Part shown: piece after piece, positions 6,899 to 19,611 of the stretch
Numbering within the stretch: the stretch's first letter is position 1
How the letters are laid out: every line of letters starts with the position of its first letter
Virus record (IMG/VR): IMGVR_UViG_2585427757_000001
Location: 1 to 19,611 of that record
Reading direction: 5' to 3' (one strand)
Source: a virus
Taxonomy: Duplodnaviria > Heunggongvirae > Uroviricota > Caudoviricetes
DNA: 19,611 nucleotides
Notes under the pieces: model-generated
What the model was told of the DNA's origin: nothing
The model's input: only the letters and a program-made list of their open reading frames with translations
The model's database searches: none
Position numbers and translations under genes: made by a program

Positions 6899-7379
6899 TT
6901 TCAAACAACCGGAGGAGATGGAGTTTAACCGTGCCAGGCTCCGAAGGGCATTCGTTCAAATCGGGCGTGTCTATATGCGTGATGCCCGGCGGCTGGTGAT
7001 GCGACGTGGTCGGTCGGCACCGGGTGAAAACCCCGGCTATCAGACCGGACGACTTGCTCGTTCGATTGGTTACATGGTCCCCCGTAAAAGCTCCCGTCGT
7101 TCTGGCCTGATGGTCAGGATTTCCCCTAACCAGAAAAACGGGCAGGGAAACCGCCGTATCACCGGTGATTTTTATCCGGCTTTTTTGTTCTATGGCGTGA
7201 GGCGAGGGGCAAAGCGTCGTCGCAGCCATCATCGTGGTGCATCCGGTGGCAGCGGCTGGCGACTGGCTCCACGTAATAACTTCATGGTGGAAACGCTTGA
7301 AAAGAACCGCAGTTGGACACGCTATTTTCTGGCGCGGGAATTGCGTAAATCACTGAAGCCGGAGCGACGACACAGATGA
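6870..7379 (+). CDS. HK97 gp10-like head-tail joining protein (highly basic)
   Basis: Arg-rich protein containing QTGRLARSIGY, which resembles the gp10-family motif. The ORF is open from GTG 6843; GTG 6870 has the best SD (gggaggt 6858-6864) and ATG 6918 is another candidate, so the start is uncertain. Confidence 0.65.
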   Translation: MDQTAFLHVDFKQPEEMEFNRARLRRAFVQIGRVYMRDARRLVMRRGRSAPGENPGYQTGRLARSIGYMVPRKSSRRSGLMVRISPNQKNGQGNRRITGDFYPAFLFYGVRRGAKRRRSHHRGASGGSGWRLAPRNNFMVETLEKNRSWTRYFLARELRKSLKPERRHR

Positions 7380-7936
7380 AACTGACGCCTGTTATTGCTG
7401 CACTGCGTGCCCGCTGTCCGTATTTTGAAAACCGGGTTGCAGGCGCGGCCCAGTTTAAAAATCTGCCGGAGGTCGGAAAGCTGAAACTCCCGGCGGCATA
7501 TGTTGTACCGGGTGATGATTCTCCGGGAGAAAACAAAAGCCAGACCGACTACTGGCAGGAGCTGAAAGAGGGTTTCTCCGTGGTTGTCATACTGAGTAAC
7601 GGGCGTGATGAGCGCGGTCAGTTTGCCTCGTATGATGCGGTGGACGATGTTCGGCAAATGCTCTTTAAGGCCCTGCTGGGCTGGAATCCGGAAGCGTGCG
7701 GTAACCCGATTACCTATGACGGCGGCACGCTGCTGGATCTGAACCGTCATGAGCTGATTTATCAGTTCGATTTTTCGGTCATCAGCGAGCTGACCGAAGA
7801 CGATACCCGCCAGCAGGATGACCTGAACAGTCTGGATGAACTGCGAACGCTGGCGATTGATGTTGATTATCTCGATCCCGGTAACGGGCCTGACGGCGAT
7901 ATCGAACATCACACCGAAATAACCTTTCCTTCCTGA
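7376..7936 (+). CDS. Putative neck / tail-completion protein
   Basis: 186-aa ORF, start overlapping the upstream stop, located just before the sheath gene. Function is assigned by position only. Confidence 0.55.
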   Translation: MKLTPVIAALRARCPYFENRVAGAAQFKNLPEVGKLKLPAAYVVPGDDSPGENKSQTDYWQELKEGFSVVVILSNGRDERGQFASYDAVDDVRQMLFKALLGWNPEACGNPITYDGGTLLDLNRHELIYQFDFSVISELTEDDTRQQDDLNSLDELRTLAIDVDYLDPGNGPDGDIEHHTEITFPS

Positions 7937-8106: not shown

Positions 8107-9599
8107 CAATAAGTTTTAGTGCTGTTCCGTCGAATACGCTGGTGCCGTTGTTCTACGCCGAGATGGACAATTCTGCGGCAAATACTGCACAGGACAGCGG
8201 AGCATCGCTGCTGATTGGTCATGCCAATAACGGTGCAGAGATTGTTGCCAACAGTCTGGTACTGATGCCGTCGGCAGACTATGCACGCCAGATTTGTGGT
8301 GCGGGAAGTCAGCTGGCGCGTATGGTCGAGGCTTATCGCCAGACCGACCCGTTTGGTGAGCTGTATGTGATTGCCGTTCCTGAATCCACAGGCGCGGCGG
8401 CAACGGTTACGCTGACGGTGACCGGGGCGGCAACCGAAACCGGCACGGTGAATGTCTATGTGGGACGTACCCGCGTGCAGGCTCCGGTGACCAACGGCGA
8501 TAACGTCACGACGATTGCCAGCAGTATCAAAGATGCCATCAATGCCGTTCCGGCCCTGCCGTTTACGGCTTCATCTTCGGCAGGCGTGGTCACACTGACC
8601 GCGCGTCATAAGGGGCTTTGCGGGAATGAAATTCCTGTCAGCCTCAATTACTACGGCTTTGGTGGGGGCGAAGTGCTGCCAGCGGGCGTACAGATTGCCG
8701 TGGCGACGGGTACCGCCGGAACGGGTGCTCCGGTTCTCACCGGCGCGGTGGCTGCAATGGCGGATGAGCCGTTTGATTATATCGGACTGCCGTTCAACGA
8801 CACGGCCTCCGTTAACACGCTGGTGACCGAGATGAACGATACCAGCGGTCGCTGGAGCTATGCGCGTCAGCTGTATGGTCATGTGTATACGGCAAAGATC
8901 GGCACGCTGTCAGAACTGGTGACCGCAGGTGACCAGTTTAACCAGCAGCACATTACCCTGGCGGGGTACGAAAAAGAGACCCAGACGCCTGCCGACGAAC
9001 TGGCGGCAAGCCGTACCGCCCGCGCAGCGGTGTTTATTCGCAACGATCCGGCACGTCCCACGCAGACCGGTGAGCTGGTGGGTATGCTGCCTGCGCCGAA
9101 GGGGAAACGGTTCACGATGACCGAACAACAGACCCTGCTGTCTCATGGCGTGGCAACGGCGTATGTCGAAAGCGGGGTACTGCGCATTCAGCGTGATGTC
9201 ACCACGTACAGGAAAAACGCTTACGGGGTTGCGGATAACAGCTACCTAGACAGTGAGACTCTGCATACCAGCGCGTATGTACTGCGCAAACTGAAATCCG
9301 TCATTACCAGTAAGTACGGGCGTCACAAGCTTGCCAGTGACGGTACCCGCTTTGGTCCCGGTCAGGCGATTGTCACCCCGGCGGTGATCAAAGGGGAACT
9401 GCTGGCAACCTACCGTCAGCTTGAGCGTGCGGGGATCGTGGAAAACTACGCACTGTTTAAGCAGTACCTGGTTGTGGAGCGTGATGCCAGCGATCCGAAC
9501 CGCCTGAACACGCTGTTCCCGCCTGACTATGTTAACCAGTTGCGTGTCTTTGCCGTGGTTAACCAGTTCCGTCTTCAGTATTCAGAGGAGTCCGCATAA
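8103..9599 (+). CDS. Contractile tail sheath protein
   Basis: 498-aa ORF, immediately followed by a ~118-aa tube-like gene and a chaperone/tape-measure set; the order is typical of myovirus tails. Confidence 0.85.
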   Translation: MTISFSAVPSNTLVPLFYAEMDNSAANTAQDSGASLLIGHANNGAEIVANSLVLMPSADYARQICGAGSQLARMVEAYRQTDPFGELYVIAVPESTGAAATVTLTVTGAATETGTVNVYVGRTRVQAPVTNGDNVTTIASSIKDAINAVPALPFTASSSAGVVTLTARHKGLCGNEIPVSLNYYGFGGGEVLPAGVQIAVATGTAGTGAPVLTGAVAAMADEPFDYIGLPFNDTASVNTLVTEMNDTSGRWSYARQLYGHVYTAKIGTLSELVTAGDQFNQQHITLAGYEKETQTPADELAASRTARAAVFIRNDPARPTQTGELVGMLPAPKGKRFTMTEQQTLLSHGVATAYVESGVLRIQRDVTTYRKNAYGVADNSYLDSETLHTSAYVLRKLKSVITSKYGRHKLASDGTRFGPGQAIVTPAVIKGELLATYRQLERAGIVENYALFKQYLVVERDASDPNRLNTLFPPDYVNQLRVFAVVNQFRLQYSEESA

Positions 9600-12230: not shown

Positions 12231-12677
12231 TTACTGTGCGAACACGCAATTTCGGCCTGATGGGGAGCCGACAATTCTGGACATTTTTTCGCAAATAACA
12301 GTTACTTGTTCTCCTTTTTTAAGAGCAGCAGCTGTTGATTTTTCAGAGTCTTGCATCTCCATTCTTGCTGGCATGAATTCATTTTCAGTTCTGAATTTAA
12401 TAATTATAGAGTCAGTAAAGTCCTTATCAATGGATTGTACGATACCTCTAACGGCGATTAATTTACCTTTTAACTGTTCATCGGTAGCGACTTCATTTTC
12501 TTCATACTCTTTAAACAGCTGTCGAGCAGTAGTGTTGTAGATTTCTTTTTGCGGTGCCGCAGCTTCCGTATCGGATGAGTATGAAGAATTAGAGCCTTTA
12601 TCGTTATTGCCTGCAAAATATCCAATAATCACCAACCCGATGAAAATATATAAAATCCATTTTAATAATTTCTTCAT
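12231..12677 (-). CDS. Membrane-anchored protein of unknown function with a putative OB-fold-like extracytoplasmic domain; antisense AT-rich moron
   Basis: 148-aa ORF on the opposite strand to the operon. Strong SD on the minus strand (aaggtga, 5 nt before ATG). N-terminal hydrophobic anchor (KKLLKWILYIFIGLVIIGYFAG) without a lipobox Cys, a Ser-rich linker, then a ~100-aa domain (KGKLIAVRGIVQSIDKDFTDSIIIKF...LKKGEQVTVICEK). The surrounding DNA is markedly AT-rich compared with the flanks. Confidence 0.7.
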   Translation of the reverse strand: MKKLLKWILYIFIGLVIIGYFAGNNDKGSNSSYSSDTEAAAPQKEIYNTTARQLFKEYEENEVATDEQLKGKLIAVRGIVQSIDKDFTDSIIIKFRTENEFMPARMEMQDSEKSTAAALKKGEQVTVICEKMSRIVGSPSGRNCVFAQ

Positions 12678-12739
12678 GTTATCACCTTAATGCTAATAAT
12701 TTATATAGTTACAAATGGTAATGGCTACCACTACAAATT

Positions 12740-14116
12740 ATGGCATTACCAGTAAATATTACTACTGATAATAAATATGGGACTTATATGACGTGGAAAG
12801 ACAGGCTTCAGGATGCGTCATTTCGCAGCGTGCCGTTTAAGGTTGAAGAAGAAAGTGCGGGAACCGGTCGCCGTGTGGAAACACATGAATACCCGAACCG
12901 CGACAAGCCCTATACCGAAGATCTGGGAAAAGTCACTTTCCGCCCGTCCATCACAGCTTATGTGGTGGGAGATGACTGCTTTGACCAGCGCGATCGCCTG
13001 ATTGAAGCGCTGAATAAACCCGGTCCCGGCACACTTGTCCACCCGACATATGGTGAGCTGAAAGTCTGTGTTGACGGGGAAGTTCGGGTCAGCACATCGA
13101 AAAGTGAAGGGCGTATTGTCCGCTTTGACCTGAAGTTTGTCGAAGCAGGAGAACTCTCTTACCCCACATCAGGTGCGGCGACGGCGCAGACGCTGATGTC
13201 ATCCTGTTCTGCACTGGATGACTGCATCAGTGACAGCTTCAGCGGTTTCAGTATCGATGGTGTGGCGGATTTCGTGCAGAACGACGTTATCGGTAATGCC
13301 AGCACAATGCTTGGGTATGTTTCTGATGCGATGAAAGTGGTGGATTCTGCCGTATCGGATGCCGCCAGGCTGTTGCAGGGGGATATCTCGGTACTTCTGC
13401 CGCCGCCATCCTCAGGCAAAAATTTCGTTGAGCAGGTGCAGAAAATGTGGCGTACCGGGAAACGCCTTTATGGTAACGCCAGCGACCTGGTCACCATGAT
13501 CAAAACGCTTTCCGGTGTCAGCCTCGGCAGCGATCTGCAACCGCGCGGCGTCTGGAAAACGGACAGTAAAACCACCGCCACGGCGACGCAGCAGCGTAAC
13601 GTGGTTGCCAGCACCCTTCGTACGACCGCAATCAGCGAAGCGGCGTATGCCGTCACCCGATTGCCTGCGCCAACAACTTCCGCGGTGATGCAGAATTCCG
13701 CAGTGGGGCAGGCAACAACACCCGCGCAGAGCACTGGCTGGCCTTCCGTCACGCATCCGGCACTGAACAATGCACCGGCGGTGAAAAACACGGTTGACCT
13801 GCCAACGTGGGAAGAACTGACCGACATTCGCGACACACTGAATACGGCAATTGATAAGGAGTTGTCCCGTACAACCAGTGATGCGCTGTTTCTGGCGCTG
13901 CGCCGGGTGAAAGCAGATCTGAATGCGGATATCAACACGCGCCTTGAACAGTCTGCACGGATCATTCAGCGCACACCGGATGAGGTTTTACCCGCGCTGG
14001 TGCTGGCGGCGACCTGGTTTGATAACGCGGCGCGTGACGCGGACATTATCCGGCGTAATGCCATTACGCATCCCGGCTTTGTGCCGGTGATCCCTCTGAA
14101 GGTGCCAGTGCAATGA
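12740..14116 (+). CDS. DNA circularization protein (Mu N-like)
   Basis: 458-aa ORF directly after the tape measure region, as in Mu-type tails. ATG 12740 lies in the AT-rich insert; the next in-frame ATG at 12788 (MTWKDRLQD...) is an alternative start. Confidence 0.8.
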   Translation: MALPVNITTDNKYGTYMTWKDRLQDASFRSVPFKVEEESAGTGRRVETHEYPNRDKPYTEDLGKVTFRPSITAYVVGDDCFDQRDRLIEALNKPGPGTLVHPTYGELKVCVDGEVRVSTSKSEGRIVRFDLKFVEAGELSYPTSGAATAQTLMSSCSALDDCISDSFSGFSIDGVADFVQNDVIGNASTMLGYVSDAMKVVDSAVSDAARLLQGDISVLLPPPSSGKNFVEQVQKMWRTGKRLYGNASDLVTMIKTLSGVSLGSDLQPRGVWKTDSKTTATATQQRNVVASTLRTTAISEAAYAVTRLPAPTTSAVMQNSAVGQATTPAQSTGWPSVTHPALNNAPAVKNTVDLPTWEELTDIRDTLNTAIDKELSRTTSDALFLALRRVKADLNADINTRLEQSARIIQRTPDEVLPALVLAATWFDNAARDADIIRRNAITHPGFVPVIPLKVPVQ

Positions 14117-15192
14117 ACGACAATGTCACGCTACGGGTAAATGGCCGGGAGTGGAATGGCTGGACATCGGTGCGCATCGGTGCCGGTATTGAACGGCTGG
14201 CGCGGGATTTCAGTGTGGAGATCACTCGCCAGTGGCCGGGAGATGAGGGTATCACCACGCTTCAGCCGCGCATTAAAAACGGTTCAAAAGTGGAAGTGCT
14301 GATTGGTGATGAGCTGGTGATCACCGGCTGGGTGGAGGCGACTCCCGTTCGTTACGATGCCCGTTCGGTCAGCACCGGTATTGCCGGACGTAGTCTGACG
14401 GCTGACCTGATTGACTGTGCAGCCGAACCGACACAGTTTAACGGACGCTCGCTGGTGCAGATTGCGCAGGCGCTTGCTGCGCCTTTCGGCATTGAGGTGG
14501 TGAACAGCGGTGCGCCATCGGGTGTTATTCCTGATGTTCAGCCTGATCACGGTGAAACGGTGATTGAGGTAATCAACAAAATACTCGGTCAGCAGCAGGC
14601 GCTGGCTTACGACGACCCGCACGGCAGGCTGGTGATTGGCGGTATTGGCTCAACGCGGGCACATACCGCGCTGGTACTTGGGGAAAACATCCTTTCCTGT
14701 GATACGGAGAAGAGTATCCGGGAGCGGTTTTCTGTTTACCAGGTGGCGGGGCAGCGTGCCGGAAACGACGATGATTTCGGTGAGGCCACCACCACCGCGC
14801 TGCGGGCCCGCACAGAGGACGCATTTATTGCCCGTTACCGTCCGATGTATATCAGGCAGACAGGGCAGGCCACGGGGGCAGGTTGTATTGCGCGTGCTGA
14901 CTTTGAAGCCCGACAACGGGCGGCGCGGACGGATGAAACCACCTATGTGGTGCAGGGCTGGCGACAGGGTAACGGTACGCTGTGGCAGCCCAACCAGCGG
15001 GTGATTGTCTTCGATCCGGTCTGTGGTTTCGACAATACCGAACTGCTTGTCTCGGAAGTCACGTTTACTCAGGACCAGAACGGCACCCTGACGGAAATCC
15101 GTGTCGGCCCACCTGATGCTTATCTGCCTGAACCCGAAGCCCCCGGCGCGCGGAAAAAGAAAAAAGCCAGAGTACAGGAGGACCCGTTCTGA
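14113..15192 (+). CDS. Baseplate hub / tail protein (Mu P-like)
   Basis: 359-aa ORF with start overlapping the upstream stop; its position between the N-like and spike-like genes matches the Mu baseplate order. Confidence 0.75.
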   Translation: MNDNVTLRVNGREWNGWTSVRIGAGIERLARDFSVEITRQWPGDEGITTLQPRIKNGSKVEVLIGDELVITGWVEATPVRYDARSVSTGIAGRSLTADLIDCAAEPTQFNGRSLVQIAQALAAPFGIEVVNSGAPSGVIPDVQPDHGETVIEVINKILGQQQALAYDDPHGRLVIGGIGSTRAHTALVLGENILSCDTEKSIRERFSVYQVAGQRAGNDDDFGEATTTALRARTEDAFIARYRPMYIRQTGQATGAGCIARADFEARQRAARTDETTYVVQGWRQGNGTLWQPNQRVIVFDPVCGFDNTELLVSEVTFTQDQNGTLTEIRVGPPDAYLPEPEAPGARKKKKARVQEDPF

Positions 15193-15740
15193 TGAGGACG
15201 ATTGAAGCCATGCAGCGACAACTTCTCGGCCTGATTGGGCGGGCAGTGGTGAAAAGCATCAGTGCCGCCACGAAATGTCAGACTGTGGATGTGTCCCTGA
15301 TTGCCGGTGAACCCAAAGCCGGGGTTGAACATCTTGAACCCTACGGTTTTACCGCAAGGGCAAACAGCGGTGCGGAAGCGGTGGTGTTGTTTCCGGATGG
15401 CGACCGTTCTCATGCGGTGGTTGTTACGGTGTCGGACCGGCGCTACCGCCTGAAAGGGCTGCAGACGGGTGAGGTGGCTGTCTATGACGATCAGGGGCAG
15501 TCTGTGACGCTGACCCGGGAGGGGATCGTGGTGGACGGTGCAGGTAAAACGATCACGTTTCGCAATGCGCCCAGAGCACGTTTTGAAATGGACCTGGAAG
15601 TGACCGGACAGGTGAAAGACCTGTGCGACTCCGGCGGTACCACCATGTCAGCGATGCGGCTTGCCTATAACGGGCATCGTCACAGAGAGAACGGTCAGGG
15701 CAGTAACACCGACAAACCTGATAAAGCGATGGAGGCATGA
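15192..15740 (+). CDS. Baseplate assembly / spike protein (gpV-like)
   Basis: 182-aa ORF with SD ggagga (15177-15182); size and position typical of gpV-type baseplate spike proteins. Confidence 0.75.
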   Translation: MRTIEAMQRQLLGLIGRAVVKSISAATKCQTVDVSLIAGEPKAGVEHLEPYGFTARANSGAEAVVLFPDGDRSHAVVVTVSDRRYRLKGLQTGEVAVYDDQGQSVTLTREGIVVDGAGKTITFRNAPRARFEMDLEVTGQVKDLCDSGGTTMSAMRLAYNGHRHRENGQGSNTDKPDKAMEA

Positions 15741-16165
15741 TGGAACTGTGGCTGACGGTGAACGGTAAACGCACCTGCGCCAGCGCACAGCTGGATCCGC
15801 TGACCCGCGCCGTGGTGATTTCCCTGTTTACTTGGCGGCGGGCGGAGCCTGATGACAACGCCGATGTCCCGATGGGATGGTGGGGGGATACCTGGCCTGC
15901 GGTACAGAATGACCGTTACGGCTCCCGACTGTGGCTGCTTCAGCGCAGCAAACTGACCAATCAACTGGTGCAGACGGTAAGGGGGTATATCCGCGAATGC
16001 CTGCAATGGATGATTGATGACGGCGTGGTGTTCCGTATTGATCTGGATATCCGCCGTACCGGGATTAATGAACTGGGTAACAGTATCACTCTCTGGCGTC
16101 GTGACGGACCGGTAATGATTTCTTTTGATGATCTGTGGAGTGCGATAACGCATGGCGGACAGTGA
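15737..16165 (+). CDS. Mu gp46-like baseplate protein
   Basis: 142-aa ORF translationally coupled to its neighbours; sits between the spike and J-like genes. Confidence 0.75.
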   Translation: MMELWLTVNGKRTCASAQLDPLTRAVVISLFTWRRAEPDDNADVPMGWWGDTWPAVQNDRYGSRLWLLQRSKLTNQLVQTVRGYIRECLQWMIDDGVVFRIDLDIRRTGINELGNSITLWRRDGPVMISFDDLWSAITHGGQ

Positions 16166-17210
16166 ATTTCAGCGCCCGACGCTGGCAGAAAATATCAGTA
16201 TGCTCCGTAACGATTTATTCGCCAGGCTGGACGTCAGCGACACGCTCCGGCGCATGGATGAAGACGTGCGGGCAAAGGTGTATGCGGCGGCGCTGCATAC
16301 GGTCTACGGGTACATCGATTATCTGGCAATGAATATGCTGCCTGACCTGTGCGATGAGTCCTGGCTGGCGCGACATGCTGCGATGAAACGGTGTCCGCGC
16401 AAAGGGGCCACGGCTGCCAGCGGGTATATGCGCTGGGAAGGTGTCAGCGATGGCCTGAAGGTGACTGCCGGGAGCGTGATTCAGCGCGATGACCTGGTTC
16501 AGTACACGGCAACTGCCGATGCAACCAGCTCCGGTGGTGTCCTGCGTGTGCCGATCACTTGCTCAACTACAGGCGCGGTCGGTAACGCTGACGACGGTAC
16601 GGCATTAATCCTGGTCACGCCGGTGAATGGTCTGCCGTCTTCCGGTGTTGCAGATACCCTGACTGGCGGATTCGATACTGAAGATCTGGAAACGTGGCGC
16701 GCCCGCGTCATTGAGCGGTATTACTGGACGCCGCAGGGCGGGGCTGACGGGGACTATGTCGTCTGGGCTAAAGAAGTGCCCGGCATTACCCGCGCATGGA
16801 CATACCGTCACTGGATGGGAACGGGAACTGTCGGTGTGATGATTGCCAGCAGTGACCTGATTAATCCCATTCCGGAAGAATCAACGGAAACGGCGGCAAG
16901 ACAACATATCGGGCCACTGGCCCCGGTGGCAGGCTCTGACTTGTATGTGTTCAGGCCGGTGGCACATACGGTGGATTTTCATATCCGCGTGACGCCGGAT
17001 ACACCGGAAATACGGGCTGCCATCACCGCGGAGTTGCGTTCGTTCCTGCTGCGTGATGGTTATCCGCAGGGAGAACTGAAGGTGTCGCGTATCAGTGAGG
17101 CGATTTCCGGTGCGAACGGGGAATACAGCCATCAGTTGCTTGCACCGGCAGACAATATCTCCATTGCAAAAAATGAACTGGCGGTTCTGGGGACGATTTC
17201 ATGGACGTGA
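16152..17210 (+). CDS. Baseplate J-like protein
   Basis: 352-aa ORF in the canonical J position before the gp48-like and tail fibre genes. Confidence 0.8.
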
Positions 17211-17785
17211 CAAACGATGATTACATCCGTCTGTTGTCTGCACTGTTGCCCCCCGGTCCGGCGTGGTCAGCCAGCGATCCGGCGATTGCCGGTGCGGCAT
17301 CGTCATTAACCCGCGTTCATCAGCGTGCGGATGCCCTGATGCGGGAGCTGGATCCGCGCACCACCACCGAACTGATAAACCGCTGGGAGCGTCTGTGCGG
17401 CCTGCCGGATGAATGTATTCCCGCAGGGACACAGACCCTTCGCCAGCGTCAGCAACGACTGGATGCGAAGGTTAACCTGGCGGGCGGCATCAATGAGGAT
17501 TTTTACCTTGCACAGCTTGCTGCCCTGGGCAGACCAGACGCTACCATCACGCGATACGACAAAAGCACGTTCACCTGCTCATCAGCCTGCACTGACGCTG
17601 TGAATGCGCCGGAATGGCGGTATTACTGGCAGGTCAACATGCCAGCCGCCACCAACACCACCTGGATGACATGTGGCGATCCCTGTGATTCCGCACTGCG
17701 TATCTGGGGCGACACCGTTGTCGAGTGTGTGCTTAACAAACTCTGCCCGTCGCATACCTACGTAATTTTTAAATATCCGGAGTAA
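17201..17785 (+). CDS. Mu gp48-like tail protein (YmfQ-like)
   Basis: 194-aa ORF overlapping the J-like gene's 3' end and directly preceding the tail fibre gene; the arrangement is as recalled for Mu-type tails and the e14 remnant. Confidence 0.7.
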
Positions 17786-17788
17786 TCC

Positions 17789-18532
17789 ATGCATCGTATA
17801 GACACGAAAACCGCGCAGAAGGATAAGTTCGGCGCGGGTAAGAACGGTTTTACCCGTGGTAACCCCCAGACTGGCACACCTGCCACCGATCTGGATGATG
17901 ACTACTTTGATATGTTGCAGGAAGAACTCTGCAGCGTGGTGGAGGCATCCGGTGCCAGCCTGGAGAAGGGGCGAAACGACCAGTTGCTTACCGCGCTTCG
18001 TGCTCTGCTGTTAAGCCGCAAGAATCCGTTTGGTGATATCAAATCGGATGGCACCGTGAAAACAGCTCTCGAAAACCTTGGTTTGGGAGAAGCGGCAAAA
18101 CGGAATGTGGGCAACGGGGAAAACCAAATCCCTGATATGTCTTTCTGGACGGTTACTGGTGGCAATGGAAATTTTGTGATTCGTCAACCTGACGGGCTAA
18201 TCATTCAGATGGTTACTGTAAGTATAAGCGGCCCGGTGGCGATGAATGGAATGACTGATAATGCTTATGCCATTACAGGTTCTAATAAGTCTTATATTGC
18301 CACAGCCACATTGCCCTTTGTATTTCCTAATAAGGTGCTGGGCGTTATCCCTCTGGTATCAACAACAGCTTATGGTGGTGTATCCAGTAATATTACAGGT
18401 TCATACGCGACTGCGGTTTGTTCTTTTGCCGCTGTCAGGGGAAATAATACGATTGTGTTCAAAGTCGACAAACCACTGAATGCAGCCTTTCCTTCAGATA
18501 CCAGCGTCTCAGCGTTAATCATTGGACGGTAA
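17789..18532 (+). CDS. Tail fibre protein: constant N-terminal part plus variable C-terminal receptor-binding part
   Basis: 247-aa ORF with SD ggagt (17779-17783). The N-terminus ([26 protein letters not shown]...) resembles the conserved start of Mu/P2-type fibres. Composition becomes AT-richer after about 18100. The gene contains the candidate invertase crossover site at 18066-18091. Confidence 0.8.
18066..18091. other. Candidate site-specific invertase crossover site (hix/gix/pix-like 26-mer)
   Basis: ctctcgaaaacc-tt-ggtttgggagaa; the reverse complement is TTCTCCCAAACC AA GGTTTTCGAGAG. Two imperfect 12-bp inverted half-sites flank a central dinucleotide, matching the TTCTnnnAAACCAAGGTTTnnGAnAn pattern of Hin/Gin/Cin/Pin sites. 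It lies inside the fibre gene at the constant/variable boundary. Confidence 0.55.
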
Positions 18533-18534
18533 GA

Positions 18535-18978
18535 ATGAACTCAGTATTCTTTTCACCCGGAAGTAAAAGTTTTTATCTGCAAGAATTGTTTCCAGAATAT
18601 GAGGATGCGGGAACGCTTCCTGATGATGTTATTGAAATTACCAGAGAAACATATGAGCAATTTCTTGGGCTGCATCCAGAAGGGAAAGAAATTGGCGCTG
18701 ACAGTTCAGGACGGCCAGTATGGATTAATTCCCCACCCCCTTCAAAAGAGGATGAGGTGTTGACGGCTGAAATGAAAAAAATATCTTTGGTTTCTGAAGT
18801 CAATACCTACATCAATACTCATCAGTGGCCTGGCAAAGCGGCGATTGGTCGTCTGAAAAGTGAGGAACTGGCGCAATATAATTTGTGGCTGGATTATCTG
18901 GACGCACTGGAACTGGTTGATACCTCCAGTGCTCCAGATATTGAATGGCCTACGCCTCCGGCAGTTCAGGCCAGATGA
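18535..18978 (+). CDS. Tail fibre assembly protein (Tfa)
   Basis: 147-aa ORF directly after the fibre gene; C-terminus (...LDYLDALELVDTSSAPDIEWPTPP...) shows the Tfa-type motif. Confidence 0.8.
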   Translation: MNSVFFSPGSKSFYLQELFPEYEDAGTLPDDVIEITRETYEQFLGLHPEGKEIGADSSGRPVWINSPPPSKEDEVLTAEMKKISLVSEVNTYINTHQWPGKAAIGRLKSEELAQYNLWLDYLDALELVDTSSAPDIEWPTPPAVQAR

Positions 18979-19552
18979 CATCCGGCGCGGTGCTGGTATC
19001 TGTTGCCGTCACCGTGTCAATGTAATCCAGCACAGCGTTAAGGCGAGTGATTTCTGCTTGCGTCAGCTGCCGCCCGGCCTGTAATTTCAGCTGAATCAGA
19101 CTGATGGAAGCCATAGCAGCATCAATCAGCGACTGGCGCTGTGCTTCTGCCACGTCTACTGCGGCGCTATGCTGTGCCTCAGTATCGGTCACCCATTTCT
19201 CACCATCCCATTTATCGAATGGCGTTAACGGGGCGATAGTAGTTGTATTTTCAGGGTAATCACCCGGAGCTGTGATTTCTTTTGATTCTCCTGTTTCAGT
19301 GCTATATACCGTTTCACCGCGATGATCTGGCACATATTCCCATGAGTTAAAATCTGCAGAACGGCAAATTGCATAACCAGCTTTATATGAGCCAGGAGCA
19401 TCTAAACAGGAACATGCCGGAATACCGACGCCAACCGCAAGATATTCAGTTGATGTGGAAATATATTCCCGCGTTTCACCATCATAATTATAAATGGTAA
19501 TGTCTCCCGCTTTTATGGCAATGAGTTCGTTATTTAATACGGCTTTATTCAT
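18950..19552 (-). CDS. Second tail fibre assembly protein, inverted orientation (Tfa')
   Basis: 200-aa minus-strand ORF with SD on the minus strand (gaggg, 6 nt before ATG). Its C-terminus (...LDYIDTVTATDTSTAPDVIWPELPEA) parallels the + strand Tfa C-terminus; the two genes converge and overlap by 29 bp (18950-18978). Confidence 0.8.
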   Translation of the reverse strand: MNKAVLNNELIAIKAGDITIYNYDGETREYISTSTEYLAVGVGIPACSCLDAPGSYKAGYAICRSADFNSWEYVPDHRGETVYSTETGESKEITAPGDYPENTTTIAPLTPFDKWDGEKWVTDTEAQHSAAVDVAEAQRQSLIDAAMASISLIQLKLQAGRQLTQAEITRLNAVLDYIDTVTATDTSTAPDVIWPELPEA

Positions 19553-19562
19553 CAGGCAGCCC

Positions 19563-19611
19563 TCACGATATAATTAAAGGCAATGTTACGAGGACGGTTT
19601 TCGTTTGCAGT
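19563..19611 (-). CDS. 3' end of an alternative tail-fibre variable segment, inverted orientation; partial, continues beyond the window
   Basis: Minus-strand frame open from the window edge to a stop at 19563-19565 (...LQTKTVLVTLPLIIS*), ending 10 nt before the Tfa' start. Called from context only: 16 codons are visible. Confidence 0.35.
   Translation of the reverse strand, partial: LQTKTVLVTLPLIIS

Follow-up and report, generated by a model that had tools for sequence, protein, structure and literature searches.

Pin-type switches have been known since the 1980s, and the P segment of the e14 element together with its invertase PinE was reportedly described by Plasterk and van de Putte in 1985. 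The G segment of phage Mu, about 3 kb in length, and its invertase Gin follow the same logic as the locus considered here: a constant fibre part (Sc) is continued by one of two tips (Sv or Sv'), the chaperones U and U' are encoded alongside them, the two cassettes are convergent, the crossover sites are 26 bp long, and a serine invertase adjoins the segment. The sites of the Din family, including pixL, pixR and gix, are listed in Table 3 of PMC3241671, which together with the K-12 sequence supplied the reference site sequences for this analysis. In the P segment of K-12, which has the same pixL as our locus, both orientations coexist in clonal cultures (PMC4272514), and the inversion of the e14 segment is driven by both PinE and PinQ (PMC12529663). 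Against this background we describe a tail-fibre locus that is very probably a Pin-type (Din-family) invertible segment, orthologous to the e14 P segment and residing in an intact SfV-like prophage.

The window, i.e. the whole 19,611-nucleotide stretch of DNA analysed here, corresponds to the morphogenesis arm of an SfV-like prophage, as indicated by its Pfam matches. These comprise the small and large terminase, the portal, an S78 prohead protease and an HK97-type capsid protein, as well as the tail sheath, the tape measure and a DNA-circularisation protein, with Baseplate_J and a Mu gp48/YmfQ-like gene lying upstream of the fibre. Among isolated phages, the Shigella phages SfI, SfII, SfIV and SfV are 94-96% identical to the window. 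The host element is an intact SfV-like prophage that combines an HK97-type head with a Mu-type contractile tail. A scan for promoters and terminators over 17000-19611 yielded counts that were not above those of shuffled sequences, and inside the segment itself promoter-like and terminator-like sites were likewise not in excess over shuffles.

The fibre gene (17789-18532, plus strand, 247 aa in the ORF list) begins 3 bp after the Mu gp48/YmfQ-like baseplate gene. Its constant 5' part, Sc, spans approximately codons 1-96 (17789..18077, plus strand), up to the core of a crossover site, and is weakly similar to the N-terminal region of the phage Mu fibre protein S (PDB 5yvq, E=0.038). The site itself is a proximal 26-bp Din-family crossover site at 18066-18091, with the core TT at 18078-18079 and the sequence CTCTCGAAAACC-TT-GGTTTGGGAGAA. 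The window contains no second copy, even when up to three mismatches are tolerated, and the site was matched in none of 200 dinucleotide shuffles, with zero occurrences expected by chance. Its reverse complement, TTCTCCCAAACC-AA-GGTTTTCGAGAG, is identical to the pixL site of e14 at 26 of 26 positions (Table 3 of PMC3241671), and the site in the stfP gene of K-12 e14 carries the same 26-mer. The site shows imperfect dyad symmetry around a central 2-bp core, in agreement with known dix sites. The original prediction had described it as an exact match to the crossover consensus; the exactness holds with respect to pixL, but not with respect to the idealised palindromic consensus, as the outer half ends in GAGAG. 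The shift in composition that had been noted at this point is also present inside the 247-aa fibre gene, with GC falling from about 0.55 to about 0.43 (0.53-0.565 over 17800-18099 and 0.41-0.45 over 18100-18899).

Downstream of the core lies the variable C-terminal tip in its currently expressed form, Sv(+) (18080..18532, plus strand), which belongs to the invertible segment and is read in frame with Sc to give the 247-aa fibre. The first 12 nucleotides of Sv(+) constitute the inner half-site and are followed by a 48-bp linker (18092-18139) that is conserved across several phages; the similarity of the window to SfI, SfII and SfV ends at base 18139, as does that of L012, a P1-like contig. Searches with Sv(+) recovered a weak match to Gp53-like_C (E=1.3e-4, under the Pfam cut-off) and no sequence relative in the PDB. 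This 146-aa expressed tip is followed by its paired chaperone gene, tfa (18535..18978, plus strand), coding for a 147-aa protein of the Caudo_TAP family (E=2.7e-28); the exact 147-aa Tfa was found in 4193 index blocks, always adjoining the same convergent partner. That partner is the chaperone gene of the silent cassette (18950..19552, minus strand, 200 aa, Caudo_TAP E=1.8e-32), whose counterpart in the RefSeq relatives is annotated as tfaE. The two chaperone genes converge with an overlap of 29 bp (18950-18978), so that the convergent pair of tfa genes foreseen from the sequence is recovered both as ORFs and as Caudo_TAP matches at the places given for it.

The silent fibre tip, Sv', is represented in the window by its last 19 codons and stop codon (19552..19611, minus strand). 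The minus-strand translation of this stretch, TANENRPRNIAFNYIVRAA*, is the C-terminus of a 266-aa fibre encoded in two relatives, L002 and L010; the second fibre segment expected on the minus strand at the edge is thus present, but what the window contains is its 3' end and not its beginning. The complete Sv' tip, as recovered from relatives, possesses a Collar domain (E=1.3e-15) and has sequence relatives in a short tail fibre (PDB 9cuy, 7e-26) and the tip of T4 gp37 (2xgf, 1.3e-17), which places it among the Collar or T4 gp37-gp12-like tips. The two tips are unrelated to each other, as would be expected of alternative receptor-binding domains. The proposed kinship with the Mu G, P1 C and e14 P segments is therefore borne out at the level of architecture, with a constant Sc and two cassettes of a tip and a Tfa convergent within the segment.

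The window contains a single crossover site and ends about 450 bp short of the expected distal one. Relatives extending further were sought by exact-protein look-ups and by BLAST against complete E. coli genomes. An isolate assembly contig (L003/L014) is 100% identical to window positions 12789-19611 and stops exactly at the distal core. The length of the segment including both cores is 1986 bp in the sequences of the 100% identity class (L003 1-1986; L002 5490-7475; contig L005), which places the distal core at the window-equivalent position 20062-20063, about 451 bp past base 19611; the window would accordingly hold the proximal three quarters of the invertible segment. In L013, which is 98.7% identical to the window and encodes exactly the same 247-aa fibre, the region beyond the edge comprises, in this order, the minus-strand Collar-type tip, a site (7223-7248) of the sequence TTCTCCCAAACC-AA-CGTTTATGAAAA, which is pixR, and an invertase gene of 184 aa on the plus strand with Resolvase and HTH_7 domains. 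The same layout is seen in the complete genome of E. coli fS25a (L001; 97.9% identical to the window, distal site at 9050-9075), where the invertase is annotated as pinE, and L010 similarly combines a distal pixR-type site with a 184-aa invertase. The invertases of these relatives (PF00239 and PF02796) start with MLIGYVRVST, are 96-98% identical to K-12 PinE and are encoded by genes that read away from the segment. The second site and the serine invertase anticipated past the 3' edge are thus encountered in all isolate-genome relatives whose sequence reaches that region, and to judge from these close relatives the window's own genome probably carries an invertase as well. A generic inverted-repeat search on L001 missed the distal site, because only the 12-nucleotide inner half is common to both sites, and a half-site pattern search recovered it.

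Comparisons across genomes provide evidence for the inversion itself. In an isolate assembly (L004) and in a metagenome contig (L002), Sc is 100% identical to that of the window but is joined at the site to the other tip, and the rest of the segment is reversed with respect to the window at 99.6-100% identity. The flipped fibre ORF codes for 266 aa (in L002 and L010), of which the first 101 are identical to those of the 247-aa fibre and are followed by GSALPVGVPVPWP...; hence translation runs through the crossover site in frame whichever way the segment lies. Similarly, the complete E. coli genomes L001 (fS25a) and L010 (PRO_A-1443) carry the segment in opposite orientations, while sharing identical RefSeq accessions for their baseplate proteins, both tfa products, pinE and the gene that follows it. 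Within the inner half-site, a C/T difference occupies the proximal site of one of these two genomes and the distal site of the other; the outer half-sites do not move. From this travelling polymorphism, the exchange can be mapped to the core region, with the outer half-site as one limit and position 6 of the inner half-site as the other. A census of junctions in 5426 complete E. coli genomes recovered the Sc|Sv(+) junction in 39 of them and the flipped Sv(+)|pixR-pinE junction in 158. The two orientations that were predicted to coexist are accordingly both seen (the window and L003 against L004 and L002, and L001 against L010), as a comparison across genomes rather than within one culture. Two contigs of about 2 kb that are bounded by the cores (L005, L007) were also considered as decisive proof of mixed orientation within one read set, and were set aside because the break would look no different in a genome with two prophages that have the cassette in common; at least two copies of the cassette are present in many genomes.

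These observations are best accommodated by a switch of the following kind. The fibre gene would be transcribed together with the baseplate genes from the upstream late operon, with its first ~96 codons fixed. The 1986-bp segment that begins at the TT core (18078-18079) contains two convergent cassettes, each with a fibre tip and its own Tfa, and a serine invertase, most probably PinE-like, would be encoded just outside its far end. The invertase is predicted to recognize both 26-bp sites, which are inverted relative to each other, to cleave them at the 2-bp cores and to rotate the half-sites, and the resulting inversion would join the fixed N-terminus in frame to the other tip, together with its chaperone. 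In the orientation of the window this would give the 247-aa fibre, and in the flipped orientation the 266-aa fibre with its Collar/T4-gp37-like tip, such that progeny phage would each display one of two presumed receptor specificities. Membership of the Din family further suggests a dependence on Fis and an enhancer; a scan of low power for pairs of Fis cores 48 bp apart in the first 300 nucleotides of the pinE and cin genes of the relatives and of K-12 revealed no clear pair, K-12 pinE included. If the switch operates in this manner, the SfV-like prophage is probably capable of producing virions of two kinds, distinguished by their receptor-binding tips. Such a capacity would be of relevance to host-range prediction and to the correct annotation of the fibre, as the orientation in a reference sequence is arbitrary, and inversion would also explain the assembly breaks and differences observed at this locus.

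The crossover site alone is not diagnostic of such a switch, because the fibre genes of SfV and SfIV carry the identical 26-mer and neither phage has a working switch. SfV has one cassette and no invertase; in SfIV the second tfa is cut by an IS element and an invertase is again lacking. This precedent of a 26-mer persisting without an invertase raises the question of whether the window locus could itself be a locked remnant, in which the ancestral cassette and site have been kept, the genome now lacks either the invertase or the distal site, and the fibre is fixed at 247 aa. It might be invoked in support of such a state that the window ends before the distal site and the identical contig L003 at it, and that one relative (L021) has a Resolvase fragment of 42 aa only. 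Nevertheless, both cassettes of the window locus are intact ORFs, and this intact convergent double cassette sets it apart from the SfV and SfIV fossils. Moreover, the same sequence is found flipped at 100% identity in L004, and a full-length invertase is encoded by all SfV-type relatives whose sequence continues beyond a complete double cassette. Even the loss of the resident enzyme need not lock the segment, as Din invertases also act in trans, PinQ being able to invert the e14 segment (PMC12529663). We therefore regard a locked locus as very unlikely. A somewhat better but still low probability attaches to the idea that the segment serves, instead of or besides host range, as a host-defence switch, in which a free receptor-binding fragment without a baseplate would block other phages. 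According to Kirigo et al. (2025), the e14 P segment gives rise to StfE2 when it inverts, and this protein inhibits the adsorption of T2 (PMC12529663). In a comparable manner, an ORF from the invertase-proximal flank of the present relatives (MPFARYFCIFINVGLGE...) is fused to the other tip upon inversion, and a distal ORF exists in both orientations, with 182 aa in L001 and 163 aa in L010 and the same 17-aa leader. However, StfE2 was reported from a defective prophage with another Sv allele, whereas the prophage under study has a complete morphogenesis module, for which the classical host-range role suffices; furthermore, the distal ORF lies outside the window and its expression is putative.

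A different question, concerning which invertase serves the exact lineage of the window, is raised by L002, the only contig of the 100% identity class that continues past the distal site, since it shows a cin-type gene there and not pinE. This contig matches the window at 100% identity over 12589-18092 and at 99.6% within the segment. On its distal side it encodes a 186-aa invertase on the minus strand, reading towards the segment and 91% identical to the Cin of D6. Its distal site (7462-7487) is TTCTCCCAAACC-AA-GGTTTAAGATTG, with the stop codon of the invertase located in the outer half-site GGTTTAAGATTG, which differs from cixL of D6 by one nucleotide, and the next genes are lydA/B, darA and ddrB in the order of D6. 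Taken at face value, these features would imply that the lineage is served by a P1/D6-type Cin, with an SfV-like tail joined to a P1-like cin-lydAB-darA block. Several lines of evidence speak against this interpretation. From 48 bp inside the segment onwards, 5.2 kb of L002 agree at 99.4% identity with the P1-like plasmid contig L012, and the two halves of the junction match separately, one to chromosomal prophages and the other to ~92-kb P1-like plasmids, meeting at the crossover site. The L002-type junction is absent from the complete E. coli genomes searched, and exact-pattern scans of genome, viral and metagenome contig collections likewise recovered no such junction. Roughly 35 kb of the 57-kb contig would belong to the P1-like side, as estimated by coordinate arithmetic with the first ~5 kb of that side read, which suggests a chimera joined through the 62-74 bp that prophage and plasmid have in common, made up of the 48-bp linker and the site. 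In addition, the break in L003, L005 and L007 falls precisely on the core TT, which fits a pixR-type flank with a G next to the core; a Cin-type flank shares AAACC with the proximal site and so would not give a break at that position. L002 was not relied on for the type of invertase because the nearest homologue of its invertase, a cluster representative with 98% identity, is encoded on a P1-like plasmid contig instead of next to an SfV-type tail. That L002 is a metagenome chimera is hence more likely than that it is a real hybrid, and service of this lineage by a Cin is the least probable of the readings weighed here. Alternatively, the segment could be a portable plug-in host-range module, with L002 the product of an invertase-mediated exchange between a plasmid cix and a prophage pix site. 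The cassette is widespread, and the segment occurs in either orientation downstream of further tail modules, P2-like ones among them, with 96-98% identity behind SfV/Mu-like, P2-like and Wedge1/sheath-initiator constant parts and partly in P1-like plasmids, and across these unrelated tail types the inner half-sites are invariant and only the outer half-sites differ. We consider this reading unlikely, albeit not as unlikely as the preceding ones; if true, it would mean that Din sites mediate the transfer of cassettes between phages, beyond inversion within one phage.

With the Pin-type invertible segment as the preferred reading, the locus can be placed among the other members of the Din family. 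The H segment of Salmonella and its invertase Hin share the recombinase family and a 26-bp type of site with an AA core; however, Hin flips a promoter; fibre genes are absent, and no coding 3' end is swapped. The C segment of P1/D6 with Cin has the same architecture, and P1-like plasmid contigs contain the same inner half-sites (GGTTTGGGAGAA) and carry the TfaE-like/Collar cassette. On the other hand, cin of P1/D6 is directed at the segment and has its end within cixL, while pinE in the well-supported relatives of the window reads away from it, and the constant part of the P1 fibre is unrelated to that of the window. The affinity to Mu extends to the upstream baseplate genes, which are homologues of Mu gp44-48, but the gix sites of Mu differ in having a GA core and other half-site sequences, and the Mu fibres are about twice as long, with the similarity to Mu S being marginal (E=0.038). 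The closest counterpart is the e14 P segment, in which the proximal site is identical to that of the window (pixL) and the distal site to that of its relatives (pixR). The gene order is likewise shared (ymfQ, fibre, tfa, convergent tfaE and stfE, and pinE), as is the 29-bp overlap of the tfa genes, and the DNA of the e14 tfaE/stfE cassette is 89-94% identical to the window-type cassette. Thus, the locus offers no novelty in kind, its mechanism being already known and its crossover site shared exactly with e14. The differences lie in the carrier and in the expressed half of the segment: e14 is a defective remnant, whereas the window derives from an intact SfV-like prophage, the segment measures 1986 bp as against ~1.8 kb in e14 (1797 bp, PMC12529663), and a 247-aa fibre with a 147-aa Tfa stands in place of the 209-aa StfP and the 137-aa TfaP, with the expressed tips of the two elements being devoid of DNA similarity.

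The roughly 2-kb cassette, at 96-98% nucleotide identity, is found 3' of unrelated fibre constant parts at the loci L017 and L019-L026, among them a P2-like type and a Phage_Wedge1/Sheath_initiator type besides others, and both of its orientations are represented in this set. Throughout these loci the inner half-site (GGTTTGGGAGAA) is unchanged while the outer half-sites vary. Just within the segment, a 48-bp stretch coding for 16 amino acids (window 18092-18139) is kept in SfI, SfII, SfV and P1-like plasmid contigs, with the tips differing beyond it; the conserved unit therefore exceeds the 26-bp site. The convergent tfa genes share 29 bp at their 3' ends (window 18950-18978), so that both C-termini are encoded on opposite strands of one DNA stretch, and the same 29-bp overlap is seen in tfaP/tfaE of the K-12 e14 locus (L009 5518-5546).

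An identical copy of the pixL 26-mer, the proximal crossover site of e14, is also retained in the fibre genes of the Shigella phages SfIV (L027 1789-1814) and SfV (L028 1949-1974). In SfV both the second cassette and the invertase are absent, and in SfIV an IS element interrupts the second tfa (L027 3090-4236). These loci are decayed forms of the switch.

In the metagenome contig L002 (7414-12603) an SfV-type tail and the invertible segment are connected, at the crossover site, to a P1/D6-like block with cin, lydA/B, hdf, darA, ddrA and ddrB. The block shares 99.4% identity with the P1-like plasmid contig L012. The junction is either a metagenome chimera formed via the ~62-74 bp in common, or a real inter-replicon recombinant at a Din site.

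Which gene comes directly after the invertase varies from one relative to another, and frequently it is one tied to defence, encoding a KAP P-loop NTPase, McrA, GmrSD or an AAA_15/AAA_21 protein (L001 9935-12271, L009 7347-8180, L021 6820-8607 and L018 7485-9582). The pin-adjacent prophage end looks like a variable defence hotspot. Within the tail operon of the window, the interval between the tape-measure and DNA-circularisation genes spans 541 bp and houses a lone minus-strand ORF of 148 amino acids (12231-12677), whose product has an OB-fold domain of the tRNA_anti-like type (PF12869, E=2.9e-19). This ORF looks like a moron insertion, because the corresponding interval in the E. coli relative L001 is just 24 bp.

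In the two complete E. coli genomes that carry the segment in opposite orientations, a second, minus-strand ORF begins within the flank next to the invertase (MPFARYFCIFINVGLGE; L001 8552-9100, L010 5609-6100) and runs into the silent tip, whichever one that is. The product would be a tip protein devoid of the baseplate-binding N-terminus. It would be comparable to StfE/StfE2 of e14, for which a block of T2 adsorption has been reported (PMC12529663).
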